NCBI GenBank assembly: GCA_963815655.1
Contig: CAWFHK010000001.1
Span: 3,930,664-3,994,663, forward strand
Reading direction: 5' to 3'
DNA from: an uncultured Acidobacteriota bacterium
Lineage (GTDB): Bacteria; Acidobacteriota; Thermoanaerobaculia; UBA5066; Gp7-AA6
Length of the DNA stretch: 64,000 bases
Made by a program: the position numbers and the translations under genes. Below, piece after piece: positions 22,080-46,329 of the stretch (its first letter is position 1; each line of letters opens with the position of its first letter). The notes under the pieces were generated by a model. The model ran no database searches and had not been told where the DNA came from. It saw only the letters and a program-made list of their open reading frames with translations.

Positions 22080-24104
22080 ATGACAAGTTCCTCGAGTGAA
22101 TGGAGAAAATGCTCAGGGGCTCGTCGGGCGCCGGCGGCCAGGCTCGCCCTGCTCGTCCTGCCCGCGCTTCTCCTGGGGTCTCGTCCGGGATCGGCCGCGA
22201 CCCCCGCCCGGAAAGCACGAGTGGACGCCGTCATTCCGCGAGAGGCCGTCCAGGCCCTGTCGTCGGAGCAGAGGACCACCCCGCTCTCCCTGTCCGTATT
22301 TCGCGGCCTCTCGAAATCGGAGGCCGAGGTCGTCTTCGGGGCTTCACAGGCAGCCGTCTACGCCGAGAAGGGGGGAATCGTCTACGCTCTGACGACCTCC
22401 TCCGCGCCGCGCGCGACCCGGATGTTGCTGGCCCGGCGCCCGTCGCTCACGCCGACGGACCCGTGGGCAAAGGCCCGCTTCCTGAGAACCACAACGGCCG
22501 AGGCGTTCGCGTCCGCCGTCAACTCTCTCCTGCCGGGCCTCACCCGGGGCGCGTACGGAGCGTACCTGACGAAGTTTCCCTACACGCTCGAGCTATCCGC
22601 GGCGGCCGCGGCGTCCCTGCCGAAAGGGCCTGCAGCCCGACCGGCGCGCCCCGCGGCGCCCAGGACCGCCGGGACCGTCCTGTCCGAGACGTTCGAGACC
22701 GACCCGTTCGCGAGCCGGTGGGCCCAGACCAGCCTGGACGGGGACGGGGGCACGATCGAGTGGGGCTGGACGACTTGCGACGCGCATACCGGCTCGCACT
22801 CGATCGACGGCGTTCGGGGCGGCACGACCGGGAGCACGATCGGGTGCGCCTCGGCATACCCCGCGAACCAGTTCAACCTCATCAACTACACCACTTACCT
22901 CGACATGACCGGAGCCTCCACCCAGGCCTGGATGGAAGTCTTCATGAACATGGTCACGGAGAACAACCCCAACAACGACTTCGTGGGGATCCTCTTCCGC
23001 GACCCGCTCCATATCTCCCAACTCCACGGGTTCCGTTACTCCGGGGATCAGGCGGGGGCGTGGTGGCGATTCCTTTTCAACCTGAAGGAGTGGACGCCGC
23101 ACCTCGACCTCACGCTCCACGACGACAATGTCCTCGCCCTCGTGTTCGGGTCCAATGCCACGACCCAGTCCGGGTTCGGGGCCCGCGTCGACGACCTCAC
23201 GATCACGACGGACACGACCCCGGGGATGACCTGCAACGCGGCGGTCGACATCGCGTATGGACAGGTGCCTGTCTCCGTCACGCTGACCGGCAGCACGACC
23301 GGCGGGACGGGGTCGCCGACCTTCATCTGGGACCCACTCGACGGCAGCTCCCAGGTCGCGGGTCAGGTTCTGATGCACACGTACACCGTGCCCGGAGAGT
23401 ACCAGCCCGACATGTTCGCCACCGACACGGTCAGCGGCGTCACGACTCGCTGCACGGCGTCCGTGCACGTCACGGCCGCGCGGAGCGCCATGGGCGTCGA
23501 CCGCCCGAACGACGTCTGCAGCGCCGCCAAGCTCATCCCCACCAGTTCATTCAGCGAAGCCTTCTCGGCGGTCGGCTACACGCAGGACCCCGACGAGCCC
23601 CAGCCCTGCGGGCCGGCGATCGGCGCCACCGCGTGGTACAAGTTCGTCGCTCCTTCCACCGGGACGGCGCTCATCTCGCTCTGCTCATCCAATTACGACA
23701 CCGTCCTCGGCGTGTACACCGGGTCCTGCGGCAGCTTTACGACCCGGGGCTGTAACGACGACGACGCGTCGTGCGGCGGCAACCCCGCCGCCTCGAAGCT
23801 CACGCACGTCCAGATGACGAACGGGACCACGTACTGGATCCAGGTGGGCGCTTCCGGCGGCTATGGCTCACAACCCGGAAATGCCCAGATCGACTTCACG
23901 TTCACGCCGGGAGTCAACGGCGACGCGGACGGGAACGGGATCGTCAACGGGCTCGATGTCGTCTACCTCATCAACTACATCTTCGCGGGAGGCCCCGCCC
24001 CCCTGGGGCCGGTGGACGCGAACGGGGACGGGAACGTCAACGGACTCGACATCGTCTACCTCATCAACTACATCTTCGCGGGAGGACCGGCGCCGGTGCC
24101 CTGA
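22080..24104 (+). CDS. secreted protein with PPC (pre-peptidase C-terminal-like) domain and C-terminal dockerin-type repeat pair
   Basis: Signal peptide. PPC-like segment (AWYKFVAPSTGTALISL...YDTVLGVYTG...TTYWIQVG). Two dockerin-like Ca-binding repeats (DADGNGIVNGLDVVYLINYIF and DANGDGNVNGLDIVYLINYIF). Confidence 0.7.
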   Translation: MTSSSSEWRKCSGARRAPAARLALLVLPALLLGSRPGSAATPARKARVDAVIPREAVQALSSEQRTTPLSLSVFRGLSKSEAEVVFGASQAAVYAEKGGIVYALTTSSAPRATRMLLARRPSLTPTDPWAKARFLRTTTAEAFASAVNSLLPGLTRGAYGAYLTKFPYTLELSAAAAASLPKGPAARPARPAAPRTAGTVLSETFETDPFASRWAQTSLDGDGGTIEWGWTTCDAHTGSHSIDGVRGGTTGSTIGCASAYPANQFNLINYTTYLDMTGASTQAWMEVFMNMVTENNPNNDFVGILFRDPLHISQLHGFRYSGDQAGAWWRFLFNLKEWTPHLDLTLHDDNVLALVFGSNATTQSGFGARVDDLTITTDTTPGMTCNAAVDIAYGQVPVSVTLTGSTTGGTGSPTFIWDPLDGSSQVAGQVLMHTYTVPGEYQPDMFATDTVSGVTTRCTASVHVTAARSAMGVDRPNDVCSAAKLIPTSSFSEAFSAVGYTQDPDEPQPCGPAIGATAWYKFVAPSTGTALISLCSSNYDTVLGVYTGSCGSFTTRGCNDDDASCGGNPAASKLTHVQMTNGTTYWIQVGASGGYGSQPGNAQIDFTFTPGVNGDADGNGIVNGLDVVYLINYIFAGGPAPLGPVDANGDGNVNGLDIVYLINYIFAGGPAPVP

Positions 24105-24130: not shown

Positions 24131-24165
24131 GAAGCCCCGGCGCCGCCGGGGCTTCATTGTTGTTG
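24131..24165. terminator. intrinsic terminator hairpin between convergent genes
   Basis: GC palindrome AGCCCCGGCGCCGCCGGGGCT followed by TCATTGTTGTT. It lies between the stops at 24104 (+) and 24175 (-). Confidence 0.5.
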
Positions 24166-24174
24166 AACCGTCTG

Positions 24175-25518
24175 TCATCGGCCGGACACGACGCTCGCGG
24201 AGGCCGGGCCGGGATTTCCTGCGAGCAGGACCCCGGGGAGATCTCCGCGCAGCTCGAGCAGCCGGGCGCGCGCGGCGACGAGGCCCTGGCTCGCCTGGGA
24301 TTCGTCGTCCGCGGCTCTCGCCGCGGCGATCTCGGCGCGGTCGATGGCGTCGGGCTCGCCGCGGCCTTCGTCGGCAAGCGCCTTCTCGACGGCCAGCGCC
24401 TGCGCCGCGACCGCGAGGGCCCGCGTCGCGAGCTGCCTCTGCAACGCCGCCTTCGCCGCCTCGATCTCGGCGCGCCGCACCGCGAGCTCGACGTCGCGCT
24501 CGCGGGCGCGCCGGTCCGCCCGGATCCTGTCGAGGCGGGCCTGCGCCGCGGCCTGTCCCTGCGCGAGGCGTCCGCCGGTCCAGAGCGGCACGGCGACCGA
24601 GACTCCCACCGCCCAGTCGTTCGCCTTGAACTTGACGAAGTACTGGTCGAAATTGTTGAAATTCGCCAGCCGCATGTACTGCCCCTCCGCCTGGACGACC
24701 GGGAGCCAGGCGCGCCTCTGGAGGAAGGCGGCGCGGTCGAGCGCGGCCTCCTGCCGCGAGAGGGCCGCGAGTGCGGGATCCGCGGCGCGCGCGGCGGCGA
24801 GATGGTTGCCGGGCGCGGGCTCGGGGAGGGCCGCGAGCGGGTCCTCGGCGGCGTCGAGAGCCTCGCCGCGCGGCGCGTCCACGAGCCAGGCGAGCTCCAG
24901 CCGGTCGAGCTCCGCCTCGCCTTGGCGGTCGGCCAGCGCCTGCTTGGCGCGCGCGACGTCGAGGCCCGCCTGCGCAGCGTCGAGGCTCGTCCGCCGCCCT
25001 TCGCGGGCGAGCGCGGTGACGCGGCGCAGCATCGCCTCGCGCGCCTCGAGCTCCCTCCGGGCGTTGCCGATCCTCCGGCGATCCTCCCAGTTGCGCGCAT
25101 AGGAGAGGACGAGAGCGCGCGCCGTCGCGGAGCTCGCGAGGGCGGAGGCCCCGGCCAGGCCTTCCGCGCCGGCCTGCGCTTCGAGGGCCTCGGCGCGGCG
25201 GGCGGGGTCGTAGAGAGTCTGGTGGACCTCGAGGCCGAACACGGCGGGGACCCTCCCCGCGACCGCGACGGGAAGGCCGCTCGAGTATCCGGGAGTCGTG
25301 GTCGCGAAGGCCTGGGGATGGAATCCCGCGGCGGCGGCTCCGGCGCGGCCCGCCGACTCCGCGGCCGCGGCCCGCGCCGACGCGGTCTCCGGCGCGTGGG
25401 CCAGGGCCAGCTCCGCGGCGCGGCGGAGCGTCAACGGTGCGGCCGCCGGCGCCTGGCCGGAAACCGGGAGAGCGGGCAGCGCGGCGGCGAAGAGCAGGGC
25501 GAGTCCCGGTCTATTCAT
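24175..25518 (-). CDS. TolC-family outer-membrane efflux protein
   Basis: Signal peptide. Two-repeat alpha-helical/beta-barrel OMF composition with Ala/Arg-rich coiled-coil heptads. Last gene of an MFP-permease-OMF operon. Confidence 0.75.
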   Translation of the reverse strand: MNRPGLALLFAAALPALPVSGQAPAAAPLTLRRAAELALAHAPETASARAAAAESAGRAGAAAAGFHPQAFATTTPGYSSGLPVAVAGRVPAVFGLEVHQTLYDPARRAEALEAQAGAEGLAGASALASSATARALVLSYARNWEDRRRIGNARRELEAREAMLRRVTALAREGRRTSLDAAQAGLDVARAKQALADRQGEAELDRLELAWLVDAPRGEALDAAEDPLAALPEPAPGNHLAAARAADPALAALSRQEAALDRAAFLQRRAWLPVVQAEGQYMRLANFNNFDQYFVKFKANDWAVGVSVAVPLWTGGRLAQGQAAAQARLDRIRADRRARERDVELAVRRAEIEAAKAALQRQLATRALAVAAQALAVEKALADEGRGEPDAIDRAEIAAARAADDESQASQGLVAARARLLELRGDLPGVLLAGNPGPASASVVSGR

Positions 25519-26716
25519 AGCGGAGAGCCTCCGTCGGGTTGAGATGCGCGGCGCGGTAGGCCGGCACGACGCCGAACACGACCGTGACGCCGCAGGAGAA
25601 GAGGAACGCGAGGAGAGCGGAGAGTCCCGAGACCCGGATCAGGAAGGTCTTGACGAAGGGGCGCAGCAGGAGCGGGAGGCCCATGCCCACGACGACGCCG
25701 ATCAGGGCGCCGATCGCGCCGAGCATCAGGGCCTCGAGCAGGAACTGGCGGAGGATGTCGCGCCGCCGGGCTCCGACCGACATGCGGACGCCGATCTCCC
25801 GGGTGCGCTGCTCGACCGAGGCGAGCAGGATGTTCATGATCCCGACGCCGCCGACGACGACCGAGACGGCCGCCGCGGCGATGAACGCGGCGATCAGGCC
25901 GAAGGAGATCGTGCGGGCGACGCGGATGACTGTCGTCATGGTCTTGACCTTGAAGACCGAGCCCTGGTGGTGGCGCTCCTTCAACAGCTCCTCGACCGCC
26001 GCCGCGGCGTTCGGGATCTCGGAGAACTCCCGCACCTCGGCGAACACCGTGTCCACGCGCCGCGTCGGCGTGAAGAACCAGGCGACGGTGACCGGGATGA
26101 AGATCGAATACGGGGTGACTTCTCCCTGGCCCATTGTGTCCACGGGCTTGTCGAACTCGCCGACGACCTGGAAGGTCATCCCGAGAGTGCGGATCGTCTT
26201 GTCCGGGGAGTCGTCGTTTCCGAAGAGGTCGTGGTAGAGCGGCTGGCTGACGACGCACACCTTCGCGCGCTGGGAGACGTCGTCCTCGTCGAGGAACCGG
26301 CCGCGCAGGATCCGCAGATTCTTCCGGACGGAGGCGTAGTTGGGCGTCGTCCCGAGGACGGCGAGGTCCAGGGCCCGGGAGAGGACGGAGACGGTGCCGT
26401 GGAGCTGGACAAGCGGAGTGACGCCGGAGAAGAGATCGGCGCGCGCCTCGACGGCGCGCACGTCCGCGTCGGTGATCCGGTCCTCCGTCGTGCGCGAAAC
26501 GCCGGCCGTGACCGTTCCCTCGTAGCTCGCCCAGATCAGGTGCGACCCGACCCCTTCGATCTGCGACATGACGAAGGTACGACCGGTCAGTCCCAGCGCG
26601 ACGATGATGATGATCGCGGACGTCCCGACGACGAGCCCCGCCAGCGTCAGCGCGGTCTGGACGGGATGCGTCCGGAACCGGTGCATCGCCGTCTCAAACG
26701 TTTCCCGCGTGAACAT
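25511..26716 (-). CDS. ABC transporter permease, FtsX/MacB-type (no fused ATPase domain)
   Basis: N-terminal TM, a large periplasmic domain, then 3 C-terminal TM helices of the FtsX fold (...GIMNILLASVEQRTREIGVRMSVGA...). Overlaps tolC by 8 bp. Confidence 0.8.
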   Translation of the reverse strand: MFTRETFETAMHRFRTHPVQTALTLAGLVVGTSAIIIIVALGLTGRTFVMSQIEGVGSHLIWASYEGTVTAGVSRTTEDRITDADVRAVEARADLFSGVTPLVQLHGTVSVLSRALDLAVLGTTPNYASVRKNLRILRGRFLDEDDVSQRAKVCVVSQPLYHDLFGNDDSPDKTIRTLGMTFQVVGEFDKPVDTMGQGEVTPYSIFIPVTVAWFFTPTRRVDTVFAEVREFSEIPNAAAAVEELLKERHHQGSVFKVKTMTTVIRVARTISFGLIAAFIAAAAVSVVVGGVGIMNILLASVEQRTREIGVRMSVGARRRDILRQFLLEALMLGAIGALIGVVVGMGLPLLLRPFVKTFLIRVSGLSALLAFLFSCGVTVVFGVVPAYRAAHLNPTEALRYE

Positions 26717-27913
26717 CTACGAACGGCGATCCGGGGACGTTACGCGAAGACCGTCCGACAGCGGAACTGTTCCGGGCAAGATGACAACGTCGTTGTCCCG
26801 CAAGCCGTTCGTGATCTCGACGTCGTTGACGCCGATGAGGCCGATCGTGACGTCGCGCCGGCGCGCGCGGCCGTCCTCGAGCCGATAGACGAAGCGGCGG
26901 TCTCCGTCGCGGAAGAGGGCCGCGCGGGGAACGGCCAGGGCGCCGTGCTTCTCTCCCGTCACGATCTGCACGTTGACGGAGGCGTTGGGGGGAAGGGACA
27001 GGGTCTTGTCGGAGATCTCTCCCAGCACCTCGCCCACCTCGCGGCCGGCGGCTTGCCGGACGCCGGGCGACACGGCGAGGACCTTCCCCTCCCAGCGCCG
27101 GTCGGGCAGGCCGTCGAACAGGACGATGAGCCGCTGGCCCACCGCGACGCGCGGGAGGTCCGGCTGGTCCACGCGCGCCCGCACGCGCAGGTGCTCGGGG
27201 TCGGCCACGCCCGCGACCACCTGCCCGGCCGAAACGGTCTCTCCCGCCTTCCGCGGCAGGCCGTAGACGGTCCCCTCGAACGGGGCGGCGACGGTGAGGG
27301 CGGCCACGCGGCGCTCGAGCTCCCGCGCGGAGGTTTCGGCGAGCTCGAGACGGGACGGACCGGCGCCCGACCCGGCCAGCGATTCGAAGCGAGCCTGCGC
27401 CACGCGGAGGCGCTCGACTCCCTGGCGGTAGGCGAGCTCGTCCGTCTCGTAGGTCGCTCGGGGGATGGCCGACTGGCTCAGGAGCCGGGCGTCCGCCTCG
27501 AAGGTCTCCCTCGCGCGGGCCGTCTCCCGCTTCTGCTGCTCGAGATCTCCCTCCGCGCGGATCCTCTCCTCGGAGAGCTGGGCGGCCGTCGAGCGCGCCT
27601 GCAGAGCGGACTGGGTCAGCTCCGGGCTCTGGAGGACGACGAGCGGCGCCCCCTTCGCGACGCGATCCCCCTCGCGCGCGGGGATGGACGCGACCGTCGC
27701 CGCCTCGGGTGCCCGCAGCTCTCCGCCCGCCGGCGGCTCCAGGCTGCCGTCGGAGAGGATCGGAACGACGAGGTCCCTGCGCGCGACGCGCGCGGTCTGG
27801 ACCGGCACGCCGCTCGGGCCCCGGAAAGCGACGGCCGCGAGGATCACGACGAGCAGGACGGCCATGCCGGCCGCCCAGCGCCAGGGGATCCGGAAGCCGG
27901 GGTCTTCCTTCAA
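26717..27913 (-). CDS. efflux periplasmic adaptor (HlyD/MacA-family membrane fusion protein)
   Basis: N-terminal TM segment, coiled-coil hairpin and beta-barrel/lipoyl-like segments. The start may be TTG at 27913 or the internal ATG at 27865. Confidence 0.75.
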   Translation of the reverse strand: MKEDPGFRIPWRWAAGMAVLLVVILAAVAFRGPSGVPVQTARVARRDLVVPILSDGSLEPPAGGELRAPEAATVASIPAREGDRVAKGAPLVVLQSPELTQSALQARSTAAQLSEERIRAEGDLEQQKRETARARETFEADARLLSQSAIPRATYETDELAYRQGVERLRVAQARFESLAGSGAGPSRLELAETSARELERRVAALTVAAPFEGTVYGLPRKAGETVSAGQVVAGVADPEHLRVRARVDQPDLPRVAVGQRLIVLFDGLPDRRWEGKVLAVSPGVRQAAGREVGEVLGEISDKTLSLPPNASVNVQIVTGEKHGALAVPRAALFRDGDRRFVYRLEDGRARRRDVTIGLIGVNDVEITNGLRDNDVVILPGTVPLSDGLRVTSPDRRS

Positions 27914-27980: not shown

Positions 27981-29372
27981 TCATTCGTTCTCGGAACGCC
28001 GGAGAGGCCGGGTTTCCTCCTCGACGTCGGCGCCGTCTTCGTAGTAGTCGAGCCCGGAGTGATCGAGGACCTCTTCGCCCACGAGAATCCGCAGCGTGTT
28101 GGTCAGCTTCAGGTGCTGGATGAAGAGGTCGTGCTCCGGCTTCAGGTCCGGGCGGGACATGGGCGACTTGAAGTAGAAGGAGAGCCACTCCTGGATGCCG
28201 GAGAGCCCGGCGCGCTGCGCGAGATCGAGGAAGAGGATCAGGTCGAGAACGATCGGCGCGGCCAGGATCGAGTCGCGGCAGAGGAAGTCGATCTTGATCT
28301 GCATCGGCTGCCCCAGCCATCCGAAGATGTCGACGTTGTCCCACCCCTCCTTCGCGTCTCCGCGCGGCGGGTAGTACTCGATGCGGATCTTGTGGAAGTA
28401 GTCGCCGTACAGCTCGGCGTACAGGTCCGGCTGCAGGATGGCGTCGAGGACGGCGACCTTGGACAGCTCCTTGGTCCGGAAGGAGCCGGGGTCGTCCAGC
28501 ACCTCGCCGTCGCGGTTGCCGAGAATGTTGGTGGAGAACCACCCCTTCAGGCCCAGCATCCGCGCCTTCAACCCGGGCGCGAGGATCGTCTTCATGAGCG
28601 TCTGTCCGGTCTTGAAGTCCTTGCCCGCCACCGGGAGGCCCATGGCCTTCGAGAGCTCGACGAGTGCGGGGATGTCCACGGTCAGGTTCGGAGCGCCGTT
28701 GGCGAAGGGGACGCCCGCCTTGAGGGCCGCGTAGGCATAGATCATCGACGGGGAGATGTCGGCGGCGTTGCTCCGCAGACCCTTCTCGAACGCGGCGAGG
28801 GTCTCGTGGGTGGCGCTCGCTTCGAAATACGCCTCGGTCGAGCCGCACCAGACCATGACGGCGCGGTCGACGCCGCGCGTCCTGCGGAAGCTCTCGATGT
28901 CCGCGACGAGCGCTTCGGCGAGCTCCATTCTTGTCGCCGCCTGCTTCGACTGCTTCGCCTCGAGGCGCACGACGTACCGCTGGTCGAAGACGCCGGGCCA
29001 TGGAACGAGGCTCTCCAGCTCCTCGCGCACGGGGGCGAGGGTCGCCGGCGGCAGCACGCCGGCCGCGGCGGCCGCCTGCCAGGCGTTGTCGGGGAAGATG
29101 TCCCAGGCGCCGAAGACGAGGTCCTGGAGCCGCGCGAGCGGGACGAGCTCCTGGATCGGCACGAACCTCGGGTGAGTCCGCTTTCCCAGGCGGAGCTTCT
29201 GCATCTGGGTCAGCGAGCCGATGGGGCGGGCGAGCCCCTTGTTGATCAGGTGGACCCCGGCGACGAGCGTCGTCGAGATCGCTCCGAGGCCCGGCAGGAG
29301 GACGCCGAGCTTCCCGCGGGCGGGCGCGATCTCGCGGGCAAGCTCCGGGTAGAACGAGGTGCGGTCGCTCAC
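27981..29372 (-). CDS. myo-inositol-1-phosphate synthase (MIPS)
   Basis: N-terminal Rossmann NAD motif (LGVLLPGLGAISTTLVAGV). Conserved MIPS blocks (...NGAPNL..., ...LCRDSILAAPIVLDLI..., ...SKVAVLD...). GTG start with GGAG 9 nt upstream, overlapping the upstream stop as GTGA. Confidence 0.8.
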   Translation of the reverse strand: MSDRTSFYPELAREIAPARGKLGVLLPGLGAISTTLVAGVHLINKGLARPIGSLTQMQKLRLGKRTHPRFVPIQELVPLARLQDLVFGAWDIFPDNAWQAAAAAGVLPPATLAPVREELESLVPWPGVFDQRYVVRLEAKQSKQAATRMELAEALVADIESFRRTRGVDRAVMVWCGSTEAYFEASATHETLAAFEKGLRSNAADISPSMIYAYAALKAGVPFANGAPNLTVDIPALVELSKAMGLPVAGKDFKTGQTLMKTILAPGLKARMLGLKGWFSTNILGNRDGEVLDDPGSFRTKELSKVAVLDAILQPDLYAELYGDYFHKIRIEYYPPRGDAKEGWDNVDIFGWLGQPMQIKIDFLCRDSILAAPIVLDLILFLDLAQRAGLSGIQEWLSFYFKSPMSRPDLKPEHDLFIQHLKLTNTLRILVGEEVLDHSGLDYYEDGADVEEETRPLRRSENE

Positions 29373-30496
29373 GCGGGACTCCGAAGGACGTTTCCGCGCC
29401 CCGCGCGCGCCAGCGCCAGGAGCGAAAGGAAGAAGAGAGGAGCCCCGACCGCGGCGAGAATCAGGAACCAGCGGACGAGGCCAAGGGCCGCGAGGATGAC
29501 GACGAGGTAGATGAAGTCCCGGCGCGCGAGGGCGTCGGCCACGCGCGAATAGCGCGACGGCACGCGGGCGACCGAGGTGAAGAGCGGGCCTTCCCGTGTC
29601 CTGGCCGGCGCCATCGTCTGAGAATAGACGAATCCGGCCGAAGCCACGGTCCCCAGGATCGCGCCGGCGCCGAGCGCGAGCGGCCACGCGGAGCCCGAGC
29701 CCCGGCTCCATCCGATGGCGATCGCGCCGAACACGGCGGAATGGACGACGTTATCTCCCCAGAAATCGAGCGTGCCGCCCAGGCGCGATTCCTGGAACTT
29801 CAGGCGCGCCAGCTCGCCGTCGCAGCCGTCGACGATCGAATGCGCGAGGAAGAGGAGCGCGCCCGCGACATCGAGCGCCGGACGGGCCGGGAGGAAGAGA
29901 ACAGCTCCCACGAGGCCCAGGCCCACGCTCGCGAGCGTCATCGCGTTGGGAGTGACCCGCGTCGAGGCGAGGCGGCGGGAGATGGCGAGCGAGATCTTCC
30001 GGTCCACGTGGCGCGCCATGAAGCCGTCTTGCTGCTTGACGAGAGTCGCGAGCAGCCACATCTGCGCCTTCGGGAGGTCGGCCGGGCTCGAGACGGCGAA
30101 GCGCGATCCTTCCCCGGGAGGCTCCGGGAAGGGCGCGAAGGGGCGCGAGCGCAGGACCCCGGCGAGATGGTCCGACGGGCCGAGGTCTCCGAGGACGGCG
30201 TCCGGGTCCGCGGTCTCGAGCGCGGCCGCGCACACCCCGTCGGAATAGAGCCGCCCGGGTTCGAGCGGCATCTCTCGAAGCGAGCGCAGCCAGGGCACGG
30301 TCGGGATGACGGACCCCGGGAGCAGGACGACCCGCCCGGGGGAGAGCGAACCGGGCGCCCGCGCCTCGGCCGCGGGAAGAATCCGGCCGAAGCCGGCGCG
30401 CTCGGCGGCCTTCACGATTCTCGTCGTCAACGGCAGGCCCAGGACGATGGTCTCGCGCGGGACCGGCCCGGCCAGGATCACGAGGGTCGCGCTCAC
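29369..30496 (-). CDS. CDP-alcohol phosphatidyltransferase with ~150-aa N-terminal cytoplasmic extension
   Basis: CDP-OH-PT signature D-G-x2-A-R-x8-G-x3-D-x3-D (DGCDGELARLKFQESRLGGTLDFWGDNVVH). 5-6 TM helices. The N-terminal domain has a weak nucleotidyltransferase-like Gly-rich start (LVILAGPVP). Confidence 0.7.
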   Translation of the reverse strand: MSATLVILAGPVPRETIVLGLPLTTRIVKAAERAGFGRILPAAEARAPGSLSPGRVVLLPGSVIPTVPWLRSLREMPLEPGRLYSDGVCAAALETADPDAVLGDLGPSDHLAGVLRSRPFAPFPEPPGEGSRFAVSSPADLPKAQMWLLATLVKQQDGFMARHVDRKISLAISRRLASTRVTPNAMTLASVGLGLVGAVLFLPARPALDVAGALLFLAHSIVDGCDGELARLKFQESRLGGTLDFWGDNVVHSAVFGAIAIGWSRGSGSAWPLALGAGAILGTVASAGFVYSQTMAPARTREGPLFTSVARVPSRYSRVADALARRDFIYLVVILAALGLVRWFLILAAVGAPLFFLSLLALARAGRGNVLRSPA

Positions 30497-30500: not shown

Positions 30501-31541
30501 TCACCCGGACGTCATCTTAACGGGGGACCTGGCCGGAAGCGGGACGGGCTCGCCGCCGCGCCGGCTCGATTCGTAGGCGGCGGCCACCAGGCCCGCGCAC
30601 AGGCCCGCCACGGCGAGGTTCCCGCCGCGGGACGCGCGGTCGGTAATCGCCTCGGCGAACTCGGCGGCGACCCCGGCGAACCAGTCCGGGTGTTGCGAAC
30701 CGTGCGAAAGCGGCTCGGGGAACCCCCATTGCGCCGTCCCGGGTCCGCCGCCGGATCCGGTCAACTCGAGGAGCCTCCCGTCCAGGGAGAGCGCGCCCCG
30801 GCTCCCTTCGATCCAGGCCCGGTTCGTCCGCTCCGCGCCGGCCCACGTCAGGAAGACCTCCGCTTTCGCGCCGTCGTAGTCGAGGAAGACCCGGGCCGTG
30901 TCTTCGAACCCGCCGCCTCGTCTGTCCTCCAGATGCGCGGCGACATGGCGGGGAGGCTGCGGGAGCCAGTCGGCGAGAACGGAAAGCGCGTGCCAGCCGT
31001 GGTCCACGAGGATCCCTCCGCCCGAGACGGCGGGGTCCACGCGCCAGTTGCTCGCCATGCTTGACGCCGCGGGCTCGCGCCGCACGGTCTCCCAGAGAAA
31101 CCGGCGGACCTCCCCGATGGCTCCCTCCGCGGCGAGCTCGCGGGCCTTCGCGAAGATCGGCGCGTGCCGCCAGTTGAGGACCGTGAAGAGGACCCGGTCG
31201 GCACGCCCGGAGGCCTCGACGAGGGGCGGCAGCTCCTCCGGCCGGATGACGAGCGGCTTCTCGCACAGGACGTGCCGCCCGGAGAGGAGCGCCCGCCTCG
31301 CCAGGTCCGCGTGCGCGGCCGGCGGAGCGCAGATGTCCACGAAGTCGAGCTCCTCGCGAGCGAGCAGCTCTTCCGCGGAAGCGTGCCACCGGATTCCCGC
31401 CGCGCGGGACTCGAGCTCCCGCCGGCCGGTCTCGCTCGGATCGCTGGCGGCGACGAGGGAAACGTCTTCGCGCTCCAGCCACGCCGGCAGGTGGCCGCGC
31501 AGGGCCACGTTGCCGACTCCGATGATCGCCCCTCGAAGCAT
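30501..31541 (-). CDS. Gfo/Idh/MocA-family NAD(P)-dependent oxidoreductase (inositol/sugar dehydrogenase-like)
   Basis: N-terminal Rossmann motif IIGVGNVA...H and the EKP catalytic motif (VLCEKPL). Confidence 0.8.
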   Translation of the reverse strand: MLRGAIIGVGNVALRGHLPAWLEREDVSLVAASDPSETGRRELESRAAGIRWHASAEELLAREELDFVDICAPPAAHADLARRALLSGRHVLCEKPLVIRPEELPPLVEASGRADRVLFTVLNWRHAPIFAKARELAAEGAIGEVRRFLWETVRREPAASSMASNWRVDPAVSGGGILVDHGWHALSVLADWLPQPPRHVAAHLEDRRGGGFEDTARVFLDYDGAKAEVFLTWAGAERTNRAWIEGSRGALSLDGRLLELTGSGGGPGTAQWGFPEPLSHGSQHPDWFAGVAAEFAEAITDRASRGGNLAVAGLCAGLVAAAYESSRRGGEPVPLPARSPVKMTSG

Positions 31542-31555: not shown

Positions 31556-32821
31556 CTAGCCGGGTCTCTGTTCACGGAAGACGACACCCATGGCTTCGTC
31601 AAGGATGCCGAGGCCTTCGAGCGCCGTGTCCTCGTCGATCGTCAGCGGGGGGTTGATCCGGATGTTGTGCGAATAGCACATGGAGAGGAGTCCCCGGCGG
31701 ACGCATTCCTGAAACAAGGCCCGCGTCGTCTCCTTCTCGAGCGGCTCCTTCGTCGCGCGGTCCCTGACCAGCTCGACGCCGAGGAGCAGGCCCTTGCCCC
31801 GGACATCCCCGATGAAGGGGTGCTTCTCCTTCATCGCGAGGAGCCGGGCGAGCATCGCGCCCCCGACCCGCTCGGAATTCTCGACGAGGTTCTCGCGCGT
31901 GATGATCTCCAGCGCGGCGAGCCCGGCGGCCGCGGCGAGCGGGTTGCCGCCGTACGAGGAGGAGCTGCCGCTCGGTTTCGAGAACGGGGGGTGCGCGGTG
32001 AGCGCTTCGGTCGAGACGACGCCGGAGAGCGGGAACCCGCCGCCGACGCCCTTGCCGACCGTCATGACGTCGGGCACCACGCCGTCGTGGTCCACGCCCC
32101 ACATCTTTCCCGTCCGCCCGAAGCCCGTGATCATCTCGTCGGCGATGAAGAGGGCGCCGTGCTCGCGGGCGATGGACTGGATGGCGGGGAGAAAGCCCGG
32201 AGGCGGAATGACGTTGCCGGCGGTGCCCTGCATCGGCTCGACGATCACAGCCGCGACCGCGCCTCCCGTCTGGTTTCGGATCACCTCGCGCGTCTTCTCG
32301 GCGCAGGCGATGCCGCAGGCGGGATAGGTCAGGGAGAGCGGGCAGCGATAGCAGTAGGCGTAGGGCGCCGAGTAGCAGCCCGGGGCGAAGGGCCCGAGGC
32401 CTTCCTTGAAGCCGCCCCAGAGGAGCGGCAGAACGCCCCCCGTCTTGCCGTGGAAGGCGCCCGTGTAGCCGACGAACTCGTGTTTCTTCGTCGCGGACTT
32501 GGCCAGCCGGAACGCCGCCTCGACCGCCTCGGCGCCGCCGGAGAAGAGCTGGATGCGCGTCAGGCCCGGCGGCGCCACGCTCGCGAGGAGCTCCAGGAAC
32601 TTCGCCCGGACCTCCGTCGTGAAGCTTCCGAAGGTCACGCGTTCGAGCTGCTCCTTCAGGCGGGCGACGTAGTGCGGGTGGCAGTGCCCCACGCTCCCCA
32701 CCGCGACGCCGGCGATGAAGTCGATGTAGGCCCTGCCGTCTTCGTCGTAGAGACGGCTGCCGCTTCCGCGGGCGATGGCGAGTCCCGAAGAGAGCGCGAA
32801 GGATTGGAGTCCCGGCGCCAT
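31556..32821 (-). CDS. class-III (AT-III) PLP aminotransferase, HpnO/ornithine-GABA aminotransferase-like
   Basis: Class III aminotransferase blocks (DGRAYIDFIAG..., ...LFIADEMITGFGRTGKMWG..., ...TVGKGVGGGFP...). ATG at 32821. Confidence 0.8.
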   Translation of the reverse strand: MAPGLQSFALSSGLAIARGSGSRLYDEDGRAYIDFIAGVAVGSVGHCHPHYVARLKEQLERVTFGSFTTEVRAKFLELLASVAPPGLTRIQLFSGGAEAVEAAFRLAKSATKKHEFVGYTGAFHGKTGGVLPLLWGGFKEGLGPFAPGCYSAPYAYCYRCPLSLTYPACGIACAEKTREVIRNQTGGAVAAVIVEPMQGTAGNVIPPPGFLPAIQSIAREHGALFIADEMITGFGRTGKMWGVDHDGVVPDVMTVGKGVGGGFPLSGVVSTEALTAHPPFSKPSGSSSSYGGNPLAAAAGLAALEIITRENLVENSERVGGAMLARLLAMKEKHPFIGDVRGKGLLLGVELVRDRATKEPLEKETTRALFQECVRRGLLSMCYSHNIRINPPLTIDEDTALEGLGILDEAMGVVFREQRPG

Positions 32822-32886: not shown

Positions 32887-33759
32887 TCAGGGTCGGGCCT
32901 CGACCGGACCGGCCTCCCTCTGCAGGCAGGCCGCGAGGCGCACGGCGATGCGCTCGGACGCGATCCGGCGGTAGAGGGCGAAGCTCGGCCAGGCGTTGAT
33001 GTCGATGACCACGAGGCGGCCGTCGGCGGCCGCGATGGCGTCTCCGCCGTAGACCTCGAGGCCGAGCGAGCCGGCGGCGCGGGCGGCGGTCGCCGCGAGA
33101 GCGTCCGTGTCGAAGGGATGCCGCGACAGTTCCTGGTCCCGATGGTAGAACCACTGGAACCAGGCCTCGCCCTCCGGCTCCGGGGGCGCGACGCCGTAGA
33201 ACTTGATCAGGTCTCCGGGCACGTGCTCCTGGATGACCGCCGTCTCGATGCCGCGCTCCGCCATTCGCGCGAGCACGGCGGCCGCCGGCTCCGAGCCCGC
33301 GGCGAACGACACGTCGTCCTCCCGCGTCCTGTGATGGTCGCCGCGCTTGACCCAGACCGGCGCCGCGCGCGAAGGGAGCGCGTCCGCCGGCAGGGGCTCG
33401 CCCGTCGCCACGAGGACGCTGCGGGGGAACGGGATTCCGTCTCTCGCGAGGAGCGCGATCATCCGGTGGCGGCGGGTGTTGAGGATCGCCGACACGCGGT
33501 TGACGATGCGCGCGCCGTTCTGCTCCCACCGCCCGAGCAACTCGAGGATCGGGGGAAGCTCGCACATGACGAAGGCCAGGGAAGGCGCCTGCGCCGACGC
33601 GGCCGCCTCGTCCGGCGTCAGGAGGGTCACGGGCTGTCCCAGCGATTCCAGGCGCCGGGCCGTCGCGCGGAGGATCTCGGCGTCGTCCACCTCCCGGCCG
33701 GGGGAATGCATGAGCTCGCGGTAGATCCCCCAGCAGGACCGCCCCGCCGGCGCGTTCAT
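32887..33759 (-). CDS. ATP-grasp family ligase
   Basis: ATP-grasp C-terminal motifs (...VIQEHVPGDLIKFYGV..., ...VVIDINAWPSF...). The ATG overlaps the upstream stop (ATGA). Confidence 0.6.
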   Translation of the reverse strand: MNAPAGRSCWGIYRELMHSPGREVDDAEILRATARRLESLGQPVTLLTPDEAAASAQAPSLAFVMCELPPILELLGRWEQNGARIVNRVSAILNTRRHRMIALLARDGIPFPRSVLVATGEPLPADALPSRAAPVWVKRGDHHRTREDDVSFAAGSEPAAAVLARMAERGIETAVIQEHVPGDLIKFYGVAPPEPEGEAWFQWFYHRDQELSRHPFDTDALAATAARAAGSLGLEVYGGDAIAAADGRLVVIDINAWPSFALYRRIASERIAVRLAACLQREAGPVEARP

Positions 33760-34484
33760 GGTTTCCCTGCCGTCACGGGCGCGCCGGGCTCGCGGGCCGC
33801 GAGCTCCTCGGCGAGGGCCAGGTCCTCGGGGCGGTCCACGTCCACGACGGCGGGGATGGAGAAGGCGAGGAGGGTCTCTCCGCTCCGCGCGAGCCAGGAG
33901 AGGAACTCCCGCAGCCGTCCGATGTTCTCGGGAGGGCGGAGCTTCCGGACCCGCTCGGGGAAGGCGTACATTCCTGCCGTCACGACGTCTCCTTTCTCTC
34001 CTCCAAGAGCCGTGATCCGCCCCGCCGGGTCGACGGACGCGCGCAGCGGCTTTTCGTCCGCGACGAACGGAGTCACCGCGAGCATCGCCGCCTCCGGCGC
34101 CTCCGCGGCCGCTCGCGCGAAGCGCAGGAAGTCTTCCCGCGGGCACCAGGCGTCCACCGTCGAGAAGAGCGCCGGACCCGGCGGCAGGCGCGCCGCGACC
34201 CGCCGGAAGCTCTCGTAGGAGGAGGCCGTCGTCTTCAGGATGACCTCCGTCTCGAGGGAAGGGAACCGGCCGCGGATCCAGTCGGCGCAGTCCTGCTCGC
34301 TCTCGTTGAAGATGACCGTGACGCGGTCGACGCCGGCCGCCGCGAAGTTGGCGAGGACGTGCGCGACGAGCGGGACGCCGGCGACCCGCACGAGGGGCTT
34401 GGCGGCCCCCCCTCCTCCCGCGCGCAGCCGGCTGCCCTCGCCGGCCGCGAGGAGGCCGCCGACGCGGATCGGCCCGGGCGTCAC
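33756..34484 (-). CDS. nucleotidyltransferase (NTP_transferase fold; sugar/alcohol-phosphate cytidylyl- or guanylyl-transferase-like)
   Basis: N-terminal GGLLAAGEGSRL...KPL signature. GTG start overlapping the upstream stop (GTGA). Confidence 0.65.
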   Translation of the reverse strand: MTPGPIRVGGLLAAGEGSRLRAGGGGAAKPLVRVAGVPLVAHVLANFAAAGVDRVTVIFNESEQDCADWIRGRFPSLETEVILKTTASSYESFRRVAARLPPGPALFSTVDAWCPREDFLRFARAAAEAPEAAMLAVTPFVADEKPLRASVDPAGRITALGGEKGDVVTAGMYAFPERVRKLRPPENIGRLREFLSWLARSGETLLAFSIPAVVDVDRPEDLALAEELAAREPGAPVTAGKP

Positions 34485-35218
34485 GGCAGGATCTCCTCGA
34501 TCTCCGCGAGCCGCCGGATCATCGGATCGCCCGGACAGCACGGCCGGGCGCCTCCGTCGGCCTCGCGGGCGGCGAGCCAGACATGCCGCATGCCGGCCTC
34601 GCGGGCGCCCGCCATATCGCGCGGGGCGGAGTCGCCCACGAAGACCGTCTCGCCGGCATGCGCTCGAAGCGGCGTCAGGGCGGCCTCGAAGATGCGGCGG
34701 TCGGGCTTCGTGTATCCGACCACGGCCGAATCGACGGCGACGGAGAGCGACGGCGCGAGACCGGTCTCGGCGCAGACCGCGGCGAGATTTCCGTAGAAGT
34801 TGGAGACGATCCCGATGCGGTACCGGCGGGCGAGCCGCTCGAGCAGCCGCGCGCTTTCGGCGAGCCGCTCGCTCGCCTGCGCGTGGAACCGCGCCGCCAG
34901 CCTCGCTGCGACGGATTCGTCCGCGAGGCCGAGCGTTCCGGCGAGCCCGGCGGCCAGCCTCTCGACGGTCTCGCGCAGCCCGAGCGTCGCGGGAAGCCTC
35001 CCGACGAGCGCGTCGTTGGCGGTGTAGAAGGCCGGGTCGAATCTCTCCCGCGGGACCTCGATCCCTTCCTCCCGGCAGTGGCGGAAGAAACGCTCCTTCC
35101 AGGGGATGCCCTCGGCGTCGAGCGTGCCCCCGAAGTCGAAGAGGAGGAAGAGGACCGGATCGTTGCGGACCGGGTCCGGCGCCGAGTGCCGGGGGCCGGG
35201 AGGCGCAAGCGGATTCAT
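34481..35218 (-). CDS. HAD-superfamily hydrolase (phosphatase)
   Basis: Motif I DFGGTLD (DxD), motif II SN, and the motif III/IV K...GD (TVFVGDSAPRD). Confidence 0.7.
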   Translation of the reverse strand: MNPLAPPGPRHSAPDPVRNDPVLFLLFDFGGTLDAEGIPWKERFFRHCREEGIEVPRERFDPAFYTANDALVGRLPATLGLRETVERLAAGLAGTLGLADESVAARLAARFHAQASERLAESARLLERLARRYRIGIVSNFYGNLAAVCAETGLAPSLSVAVDSAVVGYTKPDRRIFEAALTPLRAHAGETVFVGDSAPRDMAGAREAGMRHVWLAAREADGGARPCCPGDPMIRRLAEIEEILP

Positions 35219-36228
35219 CGCAGCTCCTCGGCCCCGGTCGGCAGCTCGACGGCCGACGCCCGCTTCCCGCGGGCCGGGCGCGCGATCAGGTAGAGAGCCC
35301 CGGGCACGAGCCAGACGAACTCCCGGGCGCGCCGCGCGAGCGCGTACGCCGCGCCCTGCGCCGCCGCGAGCCCGAGCAGGACGAAGATCCCGACCCGGAC
35401 CCCTTCGGCGCTGCCGGCCCTCGCCGGGACCCAGAGGAACATGTTGTTGAGCGCCATGGCCATCGCTTCGACGGCGAACGCGGTCGGCCACCCGGCGCCG
35501 GGCGCCACGAGGCGCAGGATGAGATACGTCTCGACCAGTCCCCCGCACCAGCCGAGAAAGCTCAGGCCGACGGCCGCCCCGAACCGTCCGCGCCGCCTCG
35601 CGTAGAAGCCGCGGATGTCGGCATCCACGCGCTGAGCGGCTTCCTGGTACCGGCCGACCCGCGCGGCGAGGAACCTCCAGCGCGCGAGCCACCGCAGGAT
35701 CGGGGCGTAGGTCCCCCGGAAGAGCGACCACGTCAGCAGGACAAAGAGCGCGCCCAGCACGGCGACCCCGCCGAGGGCCCCCCAGCGCGCCCCCGCGGGC
35801 AGAGGAAAGCGGACCAGGCAGACCGTCACTCCGCCGACGATGAAGACCCACTGGGCCAGCATGTCGGCGTGCTTGTGGATCGTGAGCGAGGCGAGCGCGC
35901 GGCCCGGCGGCAGCGTCCCGGTGAGCAGCCGGGCCTTGAGCGGCTCGCCCGCGACGCCTCCGGGCGCGACGTAGTTGACCGTGTACCCCGCGAGGTAGAC
36001 GCCCATCAGGCGCGGCAGCGCGGAGAGAGGCAGGAGCGGATCGATCACGAGCCACCAGCCGAGCAGGAACGCGGCCTCCGCGAAGAAGTAGATCGCGACG
36101 AGCAGGACGAACCAGGCGCCGATCGCCTCCAGGTTCGAGGCGATCGCGGGCCAGCCGACCCGCCAGAAGAGCCAGGCGACGAGCGCCAGGCCCGCCAGCA
36201 GGAGCGCGCCCCGCGTGCTCCGGTTCAT
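35215..36228 (-). CDS. UPF0104 / lysyl-phosphatidylglycerol-synthase-TM-like 'flippase-like' membrane protein (HpnL-like)
   Basis: About 8 TM helices, all hydrophobic, and an Arg/Lys-rich N-terminus. This family is known as a hopanoid-cluster-associated membrane protein. Overlaps the HAD gene (ATGA). Confidence 0.6.
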   Translation of the reverse strand: MNRSTRGALLLAGLALVAWLFWRVGWPAIASNLEAIGAWFVLLVAIYFFAEAAFLLGWWLVIDPLLPLSALPRLMGVYLAGYTVNYVAPGGVAGEPLKARLLTGTLPPGRALASLTIHKHADMLAQWVFIVGGVTVCLVRFPLPAGARWGALGGVAVLGALFVLLTWSLFRGTYAPILRWLARWRFLAARVGRYQEAAQRVDADIRGFYARRRGRFGAAVGLSFLGWCGGLVETYLILRLVAPGAGWPTAFAVEAMAMALNNMFLWVPARAGSAEGVRVGIFVLLGLAAAQGAAYALARRAREFVWLVPGALYLIARPARGKRASAVELPTGAEELR

Positions 36229-39165: not shown

Positions 39166-39383
39166 GGATCTCCTTGCCGTTGCCCGTCCTGGCGCGGGGC
39201 GCGTTCGACGTCCGTACCGTGTCCCGCTCTCGAGCCGATGTGCCTCAAGTTATCGCGCTCCCCTGAATATACCAGCTTGATAGCATTCGGGTTTCAGCCC
39301 GCGAGGAGTCTTGCAATTCCATGGCCGGAGAGGCGATAGTCCCCGGCGCGGGGGAATCGGCGGAGAGGAGGTCCCACAGGGAC

Positions 39384-40295: not shown

Positions 40296-40365
40296 TGGTC
40301 CTTCGCTCCAAGAACCCAACCAGGTTTCCCCCTCCGAACCCCGAGTCCCGAGTCCCGAGTCCCGA
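40250..40365. repeat. inverted GGGACTCG / CGAGTCCC octamer arrays spanning the ferritin-like stop and abutting the next start codon
   Basis: CGGGACGCGGGACTCGGGACGCGAGACTCG (40250-40280) and CCGAGTCCCGAGTCCCGAGTCCCGAC (40340-40365) are reverse complements of each other. The second ends 3 nt before the ATG at 40369. Confidence 0.75.
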
Positions 40366-40368
40366 CTG

Positions 40369-41541: not shown

Positions 41542-41648
41542 GACGTGAGACGTAAGAACGTGAGGCGTGGCGCGGGAAGGGCATTTGGAGCTTCGTTTTG
41601 CGTTTCACGCTTAACGTCTTACGGCTCTGGTGTTAACTTGGTCCAAAG

Positions 41649-43250: not shown

Positions 43251-43298
43251 GTCTTCCCGGAACGCGGCAGGGCGAGAAACGGGTTACCGGAGGCTAGA

Positions 43299-46323: not shown

Positions 46324-46329
46324 CTATCC

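Follow-up and report, generated by a model that had tools for sequence, protein, structure and literature searches.

An AF2299-type CDP-alcohol phosphotransferase in an operon with myo-inositol-1-phosphate synthase in an uncultured Acidobacteriota bacterium

Gene content and conservation of the locus

The window analysed here is a stretch of 64,000 nucleotides from an uncultured Acidobacteriota bacterium, and it contains a co-directional, tightly packed run of genes on the reverse strand, on which all of the genes described below lie. The first genes of the run (36248-39168) are Dxs (about 37216-39168) and IspH (36248-37225), identified by the Pfam families DXP_synthase_N and LYTB, and the gene order is the same in the related loci L001, L003, and L004. 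They are followed by a flippase-like membrane protein of 337 amino acids (35215-36228) of the LPG_synthase_TM/HpnL-like type (Pfam PF03706, 106 bits), whose best NCBIfam match, TIGR03476 (HpnL), scores 108.5 bits against a cut-off of 195.65, short of the level of a true HpnL. Next come a HAD-IA phosphatase of 245 amino acids (34481-35218; Pfam Hydrolase and HAD_2, NCBIfam HAD-IA), a stand-alone nucleotidyltransferase of 242 amino acids (33756-34484; Pfam NTP_transf_3), and an unannotated, RimK/LysX-like ATP-grasp enzyme of 290 amino acids (32887-33759), to whose fold inositol-phosphate kinases are nearly as close as RimK/LysX. A class III aminotransferase of 421 amino acids (31556-32821; Pfam Aminotran_3, 325.8 bits) has 69-86% identity across phyla. 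The Gfo/Idh/MocA oxidoreductase after it (346 amino acids, 30501-31541; Pfam) is a candidate inositol (or polyol) dehydrogenase, with weak NCBIfam matches, below the cut-offs, to IolG-like and levoglucosan-dehydrogenase-like families. The CDP-alcohol phosphotransferase that is our main subject (29369-30496) and a myo-inositol-1-phosphate synthase (MIPS) of 463 amino acids (27981-29372; Pfam NAD_binding_5, 315.9 bits, and Inos-1-P_synth, 104 bits) follow, and the MIPS gene call is the same in L001, L004, and L005.

Directly downstream of MIPS (24175-27913; Pfam HlyD, MacB_PCD, and FtsX) lie a membrane-fusion protein (26717-27913), a MacB/FtsX-type permease (25511-26716), and an outer-membrane factor (24175-25518), which together may form an exporter. 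This trio is present in 10-14 of the fetched loci, with OEP in orthologous loci. A hairpin (24131-24155) follows the outer-membrane factor, the last gene, and the operon is marked by 4-nt gene overlaps and by the absence of an internal terminator.

As the preliminary description had stated, a separate NTP-transferase is encoded by the fourth gene upstream of the transferase. This stand-alone enzyme has an intact AAGxGxRL...KP motif, with G9, A13, A14, G15, G17, R19, L20, K29, and P30 invariant (GxAAGxGxRL..KP), and its profile matches AfIPCT (2xme, E 4.6e-7) and the IPCT half of 4mnd over the full length. We therefore regard it as a candidate CTP:inositol-phosphate (or other alcohol-phosphate) cytidylyltransferase. 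Given the Dxs and IspH neighbors, a role as IspD was also considered and was rejected at 24 bits against a cut-off of 181.

Together, the HpnL-like, HAD, NTP-transferase, ATP-grasp, aminotransferase, dehydrogenase, transferase, and MIPS genes make up a conserved operon that recurs in Acidobacteriota, Methylomirabilota, and Nitrospirota, where the hosts are soil and groundwater members, and in other phyla. Across 57 loci, the ATP-grasp enzyme, which is the most constant partner, and the HAD, NTP-transferase, aminotransferase, and dehydrogenase genes each occur in 42-52 (dehydrogenase, upstream, 42; aminotransferase, 44; NTP-transferase, 45; HAD, 46), while the HpnL-like gene occurs in 33 and MIPS is adjacent to the transferase in only 31. 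Full-text literature searches found no paper describing the operon, and its context may be new.

The locus is also physically linked to bona fide hopanoid side-chain genes, with HpnA (45337-46323; TIGR03466, 478.7 bits, cut-off 367.65) and HpnH (46545 to about 47560; TIGR03470, 351.6 bits, cut-off 225.05) lying about 10-17 kb upstream on the same strand (45337-47560; NCBIfam). Four other Acidobacteriota contigs (L056, L066, L073, and L075) carry a paralogous cluster of HpnL, HAD, ATP-grasp, and transferase genes at a distance of 180 bp to 2 kb from SQS-HpnA-HpnH; in L056, its immediate neighbors are a B12-radical-SAM gene on one side and SQS on the other. The Nitrospirae locus L005 has MlaC and Omp85 before the cluster, and IspG and an HpnH-like gene (3 kb downstream) after it. 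Hopanoid adjacency was seen in Acidobacteriota and this one Nitrospirae contig and not in the Methylomirabilota/Rokubacteria loci, and no squalene-hopene cyclase was found among the window ORFs scanned.

The transferase gene and its membrane domain

The transferase gene starts with GTG and encodes 375 amino acids; a second GTG five codons downstream, at 30481, would give the 370-amino-acid protein called in the 95%-identical orthologue P0001. The open reading frame is real, with coding-like composition (GC3 0.88) and more than 2000 homologues in a homologue search. The proposed GTGA overlap with MIPS can be read directly in the sequence (...GCG TGA GCG ACC...), where the TGA stop of the transferase lies inside GTGA and that GTG starts MIPS, and an identical 4-nt overlap is present in independent gene calls on related contigs. 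The overlap suggests translational coupling of the two genes.

Pfam CDP-OH_P_transf (PF01066) matches residues 181-308 with 39.1 bits against a cut-off of 22. The full D-G-x2-A-R...G-x3-D-x3-D signature reported earlier for the membrane domain is confirmed in the complete form Dx2DGx2AR..Gx3Dx3D, and it reads D223x2D226G227x2A230R231x8G240x3D244x3D248 (HSIVDGCDGELARLKFQESRLGGTLDFWGD, 29753-29830). All of its residues are invariant across a 58-sequence alignment except D244, which is conserved in at least 90%, and the segment is near-identical to that of AF2299 (HSIIDGCDGEIARLKFMESKYGAWLD). The protein also has the six transmembrane (TM) helices of solved prokaryotic enzymes of this class. These features make it a class-I CDP-alcohol phosphotransferase, in which the metal/CDP-binding signature lies in a catalytic membrane domain of six helices.

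Among solved structures, the nearest sequence relative is AF2299 of Archaeoglobus fulgidus, found by phmmer with E 1.1e-22 and 45% identity over 106 residues (155-260). The bifunctional IPCT-DIPPS follows at E 1e-13 with 37% identity over residues 135-268, and PIPS and PgsA1 are far weaker (E 1e-6 to 3e-3). The NCBIfam models rank in a similar order, with the DIPPS-type NF041135 (88.7 bits) ahead of archaetidylinositol-phosphate and PIP synthases (about 47) and pgsA (22). NF041135 matches in the DIPPS half alone (residues 135-285) and falls far below its whole-protein cut-off of 580, and the scores for PIPSynth (NF045883, 46.8 against 170) and pgsA (TIGR00560, 22.3 against 109.1) are likewise below threshold. 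The grouping with ordinary phosphatidylglycerophosphate (PGP) synthases that had been named as a refuting outcome was therefore not seen. The AF2 model of the transferase (pLDDT 89.7) superposes as a whole on AF2299 and IPCT-DIPPS, and Foldseek gives a full-length match to AF2299 over 372-385 columns with a TM score of 0.73-0.78. In PIP synthase, the acceptor-phosphate motif is RxxR, and conserved Arg-rich motifs before TM6 of the transferase (RYSR, ALARRDF) align with it.

The N-terminal domain

A juxtamembrane helix and a cytosolic domain of about 150 residues (1-152; 30041-30496) precede the six-helix membrane domain. This soluble extension is genuine, with neither the disorder nor the lack of conservation that would have spoken against it. 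Its predicted structure is compact and of the alpha/beta kind, most blocks having a pLDDT of 91-96 and two having 86 and 79, and L19, G20, R26, R33, A34, G35, R55, V57, L59, V63, W69, L70, L73, D140, A144, E145, and W147 are near-invariant in the 58-sequence alignment. Residues 1-150 have no Pfam or NCBIfam match. Because detection from sequence was nil or marginal, comparison at the level of fold was needed, and this fold is that of a nucleotidyltransferase. When the family profile of the domain was compared with the PDB, the sole matches were the N-domains of AF2299 (E~0.07), through a common LLGLxLxxRIxxxxxRAGF motif, and hhalign against the operon NTP-transferase was marginal (E 0.014, probability 3%). 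Homology is thus indicated mainly by fold and position, sequence similarity to either protein being marginal. A phmmer search of 1.84 billion representatives found 67 proteins, none better than 1e-30, and no convincing case of the domain in another architecture; where long enough to judge, most were of family length with the domain near the N-terminus.

The preliminary description had also held that the domain is not a canonical CTP:inositol-1-phosphate cytidylyltransferase (IPCT), and this stands: although nucleotidyltransferase-like in fold, it lacks the full length and the conserved GxGxR(L)...K of that domain as well as any Pfam NTP-transferase match. The nucleotidyltransferase-like Gly-rich loop, however, did not hold up. 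The segment reads AGPVPR here, G10 and G11 are variable among the 58 relatives, Pro stands in place of R14 in 37 of them, one being the 95%-identical orthologue, and the P-loop has no conserved Lys. Because the catalytic motifs are missing, we infer that catalysis has been lost and that the domain is what is left, in inactive form, of the IPCT half of an ancestral IPCT/DIPPS fusion. By analogy with AF2299, it has probably been retained to buttress the TM2-TM3 loop structurally, and it may possibly serve as a docking surface. Binding of a phosphorylated ligand by the invariant R26, R33, and R55 could still be conceived.

This architecture is not surprising, since the AF2299 type has been known structurally since 2014. 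The suggestion that it departs from known enzymes has to be given up, as it matches solved archaeal AF2299 (PDB 4O6M/4O6N/4Q7C), with its short cytosolic cytidylyltransferase-like N-domain, juxtamembrane helix, and six TM helices, and is best read as a shortened, degenerate form of the fused IPCT/DIPPS layout. The two proteins share the N-domain motif and, in the most similar region, HSI(V/I)DGCDGE(L/I)ARLKF. They differ in that AF2299 is archaeal and the transferase bacterial, with just 24% identity overall and an N-domain diverged beyond reliable sequence detection; moreover, the transferase was seen within an operon of MIPS, NTP-transferase, HAD, ATP-grasp, dehydrogenase, and aminotransferase genes, whereas AF2299 was compared as a protein alone. 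The bifunctional IPCT/DIPPS (AF0263, PDB 4MND, NF041135, EC 2.7.7.74 and 2.7.8.34) has the same domain order, but the N-domain here is about two-thirds as long, and the cytidylyltransferase is a separate gene in mesophilic hosts. Both AF2299 and AfDIPPS combine an N-terminal cytidylyltransferase-like domain with soluble substrates (PMC4634129). PIP synthases (PgsA1, RsPIPS) have no native N-terminal domain, and the AF2299 domain in PDB 5D91/5D92 is an engineered fusion (PMC4634129).

Possible function of the operon

We think it likely that the protein is an AF2299-type (DIPPS-clade) CDP-alcohol phosphotransferase with an IPCT-remnant N-domain, which receives its CDP-alcohol in trans and transfers the phospho-alcohol. 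MIPS would supply inositol-phosphate, the stand-alone NTP_transf_3 enzyme would activate it in trans (CTP + alcohol-phosphate -> CDP-alcohol), and the transferase would move the phospho-alcohol from the water-soluble CDP-alcohol to an acceptor hydroxyl, releasing CMP. The soluble nature of the donor is suggested by clade membership and by the operon-encoded NTP-transferase. It would most likely be CDP-inositol, or CDP-inosamine after dehydrogenase and aminotransferase steps, though AF2299 was crystallised with CDP-glycerol and a different donor could be used. Possible acceptors are inositol-phosphate, which DIPPS uses, and membrane polyols, for example diacylglycerol or bacteriohopanetetrol, and the HAD phosphatase, ATP-grasp enzyme, and HpnL-like membrane protein might then process or translocate the product. 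AF2299 has no assigned physiological role, and the operon context offers a testable hypothesis for enzymes of its type, for HpnL, and for the operon partners.

The labels that homologues carry in JGI records point elsewhere, and neither fits, which makes the mis-annotation systematic. Many are named 'phosphatidylglycerophosphate synthase', and the Pfam family is indeed common to both; with MIPS adjacent, a PIP synthase is also conceivable, and in either case the enzyme would use CDP-diacylglycerol and the N-domain would be an irrelevant add-on. The scores for pgsA and PIP synthase and the weak matches to PIPS and PgsA1 make this improbable, however, as does the fact that an enzyme dependent on CDP-diacylglycerol, the lipidic donor of actinobacterial PIP synthase, would need no operon-encoded soluble NTP-transferase. 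Several others are named '1L-myo-inositol 1-phosphate cytidylyltransferase / CDP-L-myo-inositol myo-inositolphosphotransferase', which would make the N-domain itself an active IPCT. Its fold is right, but it measures about 150 residues rather than the roughly 230 of IPCT, its nucleotide-binding motifs are degenerate, the NF041135 match is confined to the DIPPS half, and 45 of the 57 loci also have an intact NTP-transferase in a gene of its own; bifunctionality thus seems hardly credible.

If the likely reading of an AF2299-type enzyme supplied in trans is accepted, the nature of the acceptor divides the remaining possibilities. A tentative proposal is that the enzyme is a Kennedy-type head-group transferase, placing phospho-inositol or -inosamine from a CDP-alcohol onto diacylglycerol or a bacteriohopanetetrol side chain, with the ATP-grasp enzyme decorating the head group and the HpnL-like protein and MacB-type pump moving the product outward. 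The Dxs, IspH, and HpnL-like genes at the start of the operon, the nearby HpnH and HpnA, the paralogous clusters beside SQS-HpnA-HpnH, and the surroundings of the Nitrospirae locus are all consistent with a membrane product, and HpnL has no known function (PMC12324291). Hopanoid adjacency does not extend to Methylomirabilota/Rokubacteria loci, however, and full-text literature searches found no report of a phospho-inositol hopanoid. Known lipid-acceptor CDP-alcohol transferases carry extra TM helices, which this six-helix enzyme is without. Its closest characterised relatives, DIPPS and AF2299, do not process lipids (PMC4634129). That kinship instead favors a soluble acceptor and a split form of the di-myo-inositol phosphate (DIP) pathway, leading from MIPS through the stand-alone NTP-transferase as IPCT and the transferase as DIPP synthase to the HAD phosphatase. 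The product would be DIP or a related phosphodiester solute, derivatised by the extra enzymes. All of the enzymes for this logic are in the operon, the Arg-rich motifs before TM6 align with an acceptor-phosphate motif, and a Methylomirabilales MAG (L009) has a canonical fused IPCT-DIPPS-like gene within the same locus. We nevertheless find a soluble product somewhat unlikely: DIP is a solute of (hyper)thermophiles and the hosts are soil and groundwater bacteria, the NF041135 score is low, and the DIP pathway neither needs nor has an equivalent of the ATP-grasp, dehydrogenase, aminotransferase, and HpnL-like genes.

A more specific and speculative idea, unlikely as it stands, is that the hopanoid locus has a head-group pathway attached to it that has not been described before. 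MIPS-derived inositol would be oxidised and transaminated to inosamine and (re)activated via the ATP-grasp enzyme and the stand-alone cytidylyltransferase. The AF2299-type enzyme would then link it through a phosphodiester to bacteriohopanetetrol or a different membrane polyol, and the product would be exported by the HpnL-like protein and MacB-type pump. If true, this would be the first physiological function for both AF2299-type enzymes and HpnL, and Acidobacteriota, Methylomirabilota, and Nitrospirota would be expected to contain hopanoids or lipids of a new class, carrying phospho-inositol or phospho-inosamine. More broadly, the locus points to an unrecognised inositol-derived phosphodiester, lipid or solute, in abundant uncultured soil phyla.

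A membrane product would also be in keeping with the inositol-lipid cluster, termed 'alternative' and functionally unconfirmed, that was proposed for Bacteroides vulgatus and Prevotella (Heaver et al. 2022; PMC9246714). Compared by domain composition alone, the two have in common an NTP-transferase, a CDP-alcohol phosphatidyltransferase, a HAD hydrolase, MIPS, and an LPG-synthase-like gene nearby. The window and most of the related loci contain all five components in the same orientation, and to these the operon described here adds the ATP-grasp enzyme, the Gfo/Idh/MocA dehydrogenase, the class III aminotransferase, and a hopanoid/isoprenoid neighborhood.

A bacterial transferase of the AF2299 kind

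The transferase gene lies on the minus strand at 29369-30496, in a window of about 70% G+C, and encodes 375 amino acids from a GTG start; the Gfo/Idh/MocA gene before it ends in a TGA 4 nt earlier. An alternative GTG five codons downstream would yield the 370-residue form called in a 95%-identical orthologue. At its other end, the stop (GCG-TGA-GCG) falls within a GTGA whose GTG starts a 463-aa myo-inositol-1-phosphate synthase (MIPS; Pfam NAD_binding_5 at 316 bits). This 4-nt overlap, pointed out in the preliminary description, recurs in independent gene calls on related contigs. Pfam CDP-OH_P_transf matches aa 181-308 (39 bits; cut-off 22), and the full catalytic signature read there earlier is indeed complete, as D223x2D226G227x2A230R231x8G240x3D244x3D248. 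Across 58 aligned sequences its residues are invariant other than D244, which is kept in at least 90%.

The preliminary description had also set the architecture apart from the fused IPCT/DIPPS and from mycobacterial PIP synthase; on structural comparison it is not new. The best Foldseek matches of the transferase model in the PDB are the AF2299 structures 4O6N, 4O6M and 4Q7C, from the two-domain enzyme of Archaeoglobus fulgidus; these alignments span 372-385 columns (target-normalised TM 0.73-0.78) and therefore cover both domains. Engineered chimeras of the AF2299 N-domain with PIP synthase and the fused IPCT-DIPPS 4MND rank next. Over aa 155-260 the transmembrane half shares 45% of its residues with AF2299 (E 1e-22); its identity to DIPPS is 37%. 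Because AF2299 shows the same layout by Foldseek, by sequence and in the account of Clarke et al. (PMC4634129), the architecture is already known: the protein is a bacterial member of the AF2299 kind, and its architecture is ordinary. According to Clarke et al., neither AF2299 nor DIPPS processes lipids.

Grouping with ordinary phosphatidylglycerophosphate (PGP) synthases, which would have undone the earlier reading, was not found; AF2299 is the closest solved relative. By the NCBIfam family tests the protein qualifies neither as a bifunctional IPCT/DIPPS nor as a PGP or PIP synthase. Database records of the homologous proteins P0002-P0120 are inconsistent, using either "phosphatidylglycerophosphate synthase" or "IPCT / CDP-inositol inositolphosphotransferase", and by those tests both names are wrong.

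A conserved N-terminal domain and a separate nucleotidyltransferase

The N-terminal extension is neither disordered nor idiosyncratic, two possibilities that had been raised against it. AlphaFold2, given the homologue alignment, models the transferase with a mean pLDDT of 89.7 and a pTM of 0.84; blocks within aa 1-150 score mostly 91-96, with two at 86 and 79, and form a predicted beta-alpha-beta domain, with a juxtamembrane helix and the transmembrane bundle coming after it. The best 120 homologues are all at least 51% identical, almost every one of them aligns to most of the query, extension included, and L19, G20, R26, R33, A34, G35, R55, V57, L59, V63, W69, L70, L73, D140, A144, E145 and W147 are nearly invariant. 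Even variants whose tblastn match begins only at aa ~134 have a shorter N-domain that retains the motif LLGLPxxRR..A(E/R)RAGF. When a profile of the N-domain only was compared with the PDB, AF2299 N-domains were the sole matches, marginally (E~0.07), through LLGLxLxxRIxxxxxRAGF.

The extension was rightly described as not a canonical IPCT domain: it has ~150 aa against ~230, has no nucleotidyltransferase match in Pfam or NCBIfam, and lies largely outside the match to NF041135 (IPCT/DIPPS), which is restricted to aa 135-285 and reaches 88.7 of the required 580 bits. The nucleotidyltransferase-like Gly-rich loop proposed for it does not hold up. The loop reads AGPVPR here, its Arg position is Pro in 37 of 58 relatives, the 95%-identical orthologue among them, G10 and G11 are variable, and no Lys is conserved. 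By hhalign, a conserved segment of the N-domain weakly matches (E 0.014) the NTP-transferase family at the beta-strand and helix after its P-loop Lys.

In contrast to this domain, the separate NTP-transferase, found as previously noted four genes upstream (Pfam NTP_transf_3; 33756-34484, minus strand), has the motif GxAAGxGxRL...KP, which does not vary in its family. A profile of that family aligns over the full length of A. fulgidus IPCT (2XME, E 4.6e-7) and of the IPCT half of 4MND. Judging from sequence, the N-domain is probably not an enzyme. It is probably what is left of a degenerate IPCT half, kept as a structural partner of the transmembrane domain, and its three invariant arginines could possibly allow residual ligand binding.

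Intact and degenerate versions coexist, since a Methylomirabilales contig (L009, 13137-15576) carries a canonical fused gene a few kb downstream of the orthologous cluster. That gene joins an intact IIAAGRGGRL...KPL nucleotidyltransferase domain to a DIPPS-like transmembrane domain and is followed by a second HpnL-like gene. The Rokubacteria loci L022, L025 and L032 hold a further paralogue whose degenerate N-domain is different.

The operon and its distribution

The transferase belongs to a run of 13 co-directional genes spaced by short gaps or 4-nt overlaps: Dxs, IspH, an HpnL-like LPG_synthase_TM protein, a HAD-IA phosphatase, the NTP-transferase, an unannotated 290-aa protein, a class III aminotransferase, the Gfo/Idh/MocA dehydrogenase, the transferase, MIPS, a membrane-fusion protein, a MacB/FtsX permease and an outer-membrane factor. 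No convincing minus-strand terminator was found within the run; past its last gene comes a strong hairpin. This perfect 11-bp, GC-rich hairpin (GAAGCCCCGGCGCCGCCGGGGCTTC; 24131-24155) sits between that gene and a convergent one at 22080-24104 on the plus strand, which encodes a 674-aa PKD/dockerin-like secreted protein, and is probably a bidirectional terminator.

The 290-aa protein (32887-33759, minus strand) is an ATP-grasp enzyme, be it ligase or kinase, with a profile match to RimK (E 5e-7) and an AF2 model at pLDDT 88.6; its counterparts in related loci are all labelled "hypothetical protein", without a Pfam domain. The three genes directly downstream of MIPS (24175-27913, minus strand), for the membrane-fusion protein, MacB/FtsX-type permease and outer-membrane factor, have no adjoining ABC ATPase gene and resemble DevBCA/TolC-type glycolipid exporters in layout. 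The same set occurs in 10-14 of the fetched loci.

A genome scan found at least 552 species-level loci, those listed being all in MAGs, from Acidobacteriota (Thermoanaerobaculia), Methylomirabilota/Rokubacteria, Nitrospirota, Rhodospirillales, Chloroflexota and others. Flanking sequence was sufficient at 57 loci, where the partners were ATP-grasp (52), HAD (46), NTP-transferase (45), aminotransferase (44), dehydrogenase (42), HpnL-like (33) and MIPS (31), and variants missing both the dehydrogenase and the aminotransferase occur. Certain Acidobacteriota have a second, shorter paralogous cluster (L056, L066, L073 and L075; also L026, L035, L078 and L079) of HpnL-like, HAD, ATP-grasp and AF2299-type transferase genes, without NTP-transferase, aminotransferase, dehydrogenase or MIPS. 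In two genomes among the first four, the companion full cluster has no HAD gene of its own. We found no published description of the operon in a full-text literature search.

Possible chemistry and the hopanoid neighbourhood

With fold, motif, clade and operon established, a pathway can be proposed. The stand-alone cytidylyltransferase would convert a MIPS-derived inositol phosphate to a soluble CDP-alcohol; this precursor may first be dephosphorylated, oxidised, transaminated and, with the ATP-grasp enzyme, reactivated to an inosamine phosphate. The AF2299-type transferase would then pass the phospho-alcohol to an acceptor hydroxyl, releasing CMP. An alternative CDP-inositol route to inositol lipids has been proposed, unconfirmed, for Bacteroides vulgatus and Prevotella (PMC9246714), and its set of NTP-transferase, CDP-alcohol transferase, HAD, MIPS and LPG-synthase homologue corresponds to five genes of the operon.

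The nature of the acceptor can be approached from two sides. Ahead of TM6 lie two conserved Arg-rich segments (R315-Y-S-R318 and ALARRDF) that line up with the RxxR motif for the acceptor phosphate in PIP synthase; together with the HAD phosphatase of the operon, they would fit an acceptor that is phosphorylated, inositol-1-phosphate for example. A membrane-bound product is favoured by another part of the context, namely the HpnL-like protein, the exporter genes in the run and a nearby hopanoid locus.

HpnA (45337-46323; TIGR03466, 479 bits, cut-off 368) and HpnH (46545 to about 47560; TIGR03470, 352 bits, cut-off 225) are encoded ~10-17 kb upstream of the operon on the same, minus strand. Between them and the operon lie a squalene/phytoene-synthase-like (SQS) gene (43705-45018, minus) and a B12-binding radical SAM gene with DUF4070 (41637-43250, plus), the latter under the cut-offs for HpnJ, HpnR and PhpK. 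The stretch 41637-48014 makes up a hopanoid side-chain locus; no squalene-hopene cyclase was found among the scanned window ORFs. On a Nitrospirae contig, the genes after the cluster are IspG and an HpnH-like gene. The paralogous cluster is found 180 bp to 2 kb away from SQS-HpnA-HpnH in L056, L066, L073 and L075; in L056 its place is directly between the B12-radical-SAM gene and SQS. HpnL is the top-scoring NCBIfam family for the operon's HpnL-like gene, below cut-off; the function of HpnL is not known (PMC12324291). Such linkage was not seen in Methylomirabilota loci, and the connection between operon and hopanoids is suggestive. A full-text search on hopanoids and inositol found no report of a phospho-inositol hopanoid. 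The conservation of the operon offers a testable way to the physiological roles of AF2299-type enzymes and HpnL, and possibly to a novel head group derived from inositol in abundant, uncultured soil phyla.

Two neighbouring plus-strand ORFs (39267-40295 and 40234-41541) have no Pfam or NCBIfam match. The first is found in 28 related loci and may be part of the isoprenoid/hopanoid neighbourhood, because it adjoins Dxs in many of them. Unrelated neighbours in the window include a VKOR-DsbA/thioredoxin fusion (53468-54976, minus), the B12-dependent methionine synthase MetH (49304-53179, plus) and a large Ser/Thr kinase with TPR repeats (13573-17316, plus).
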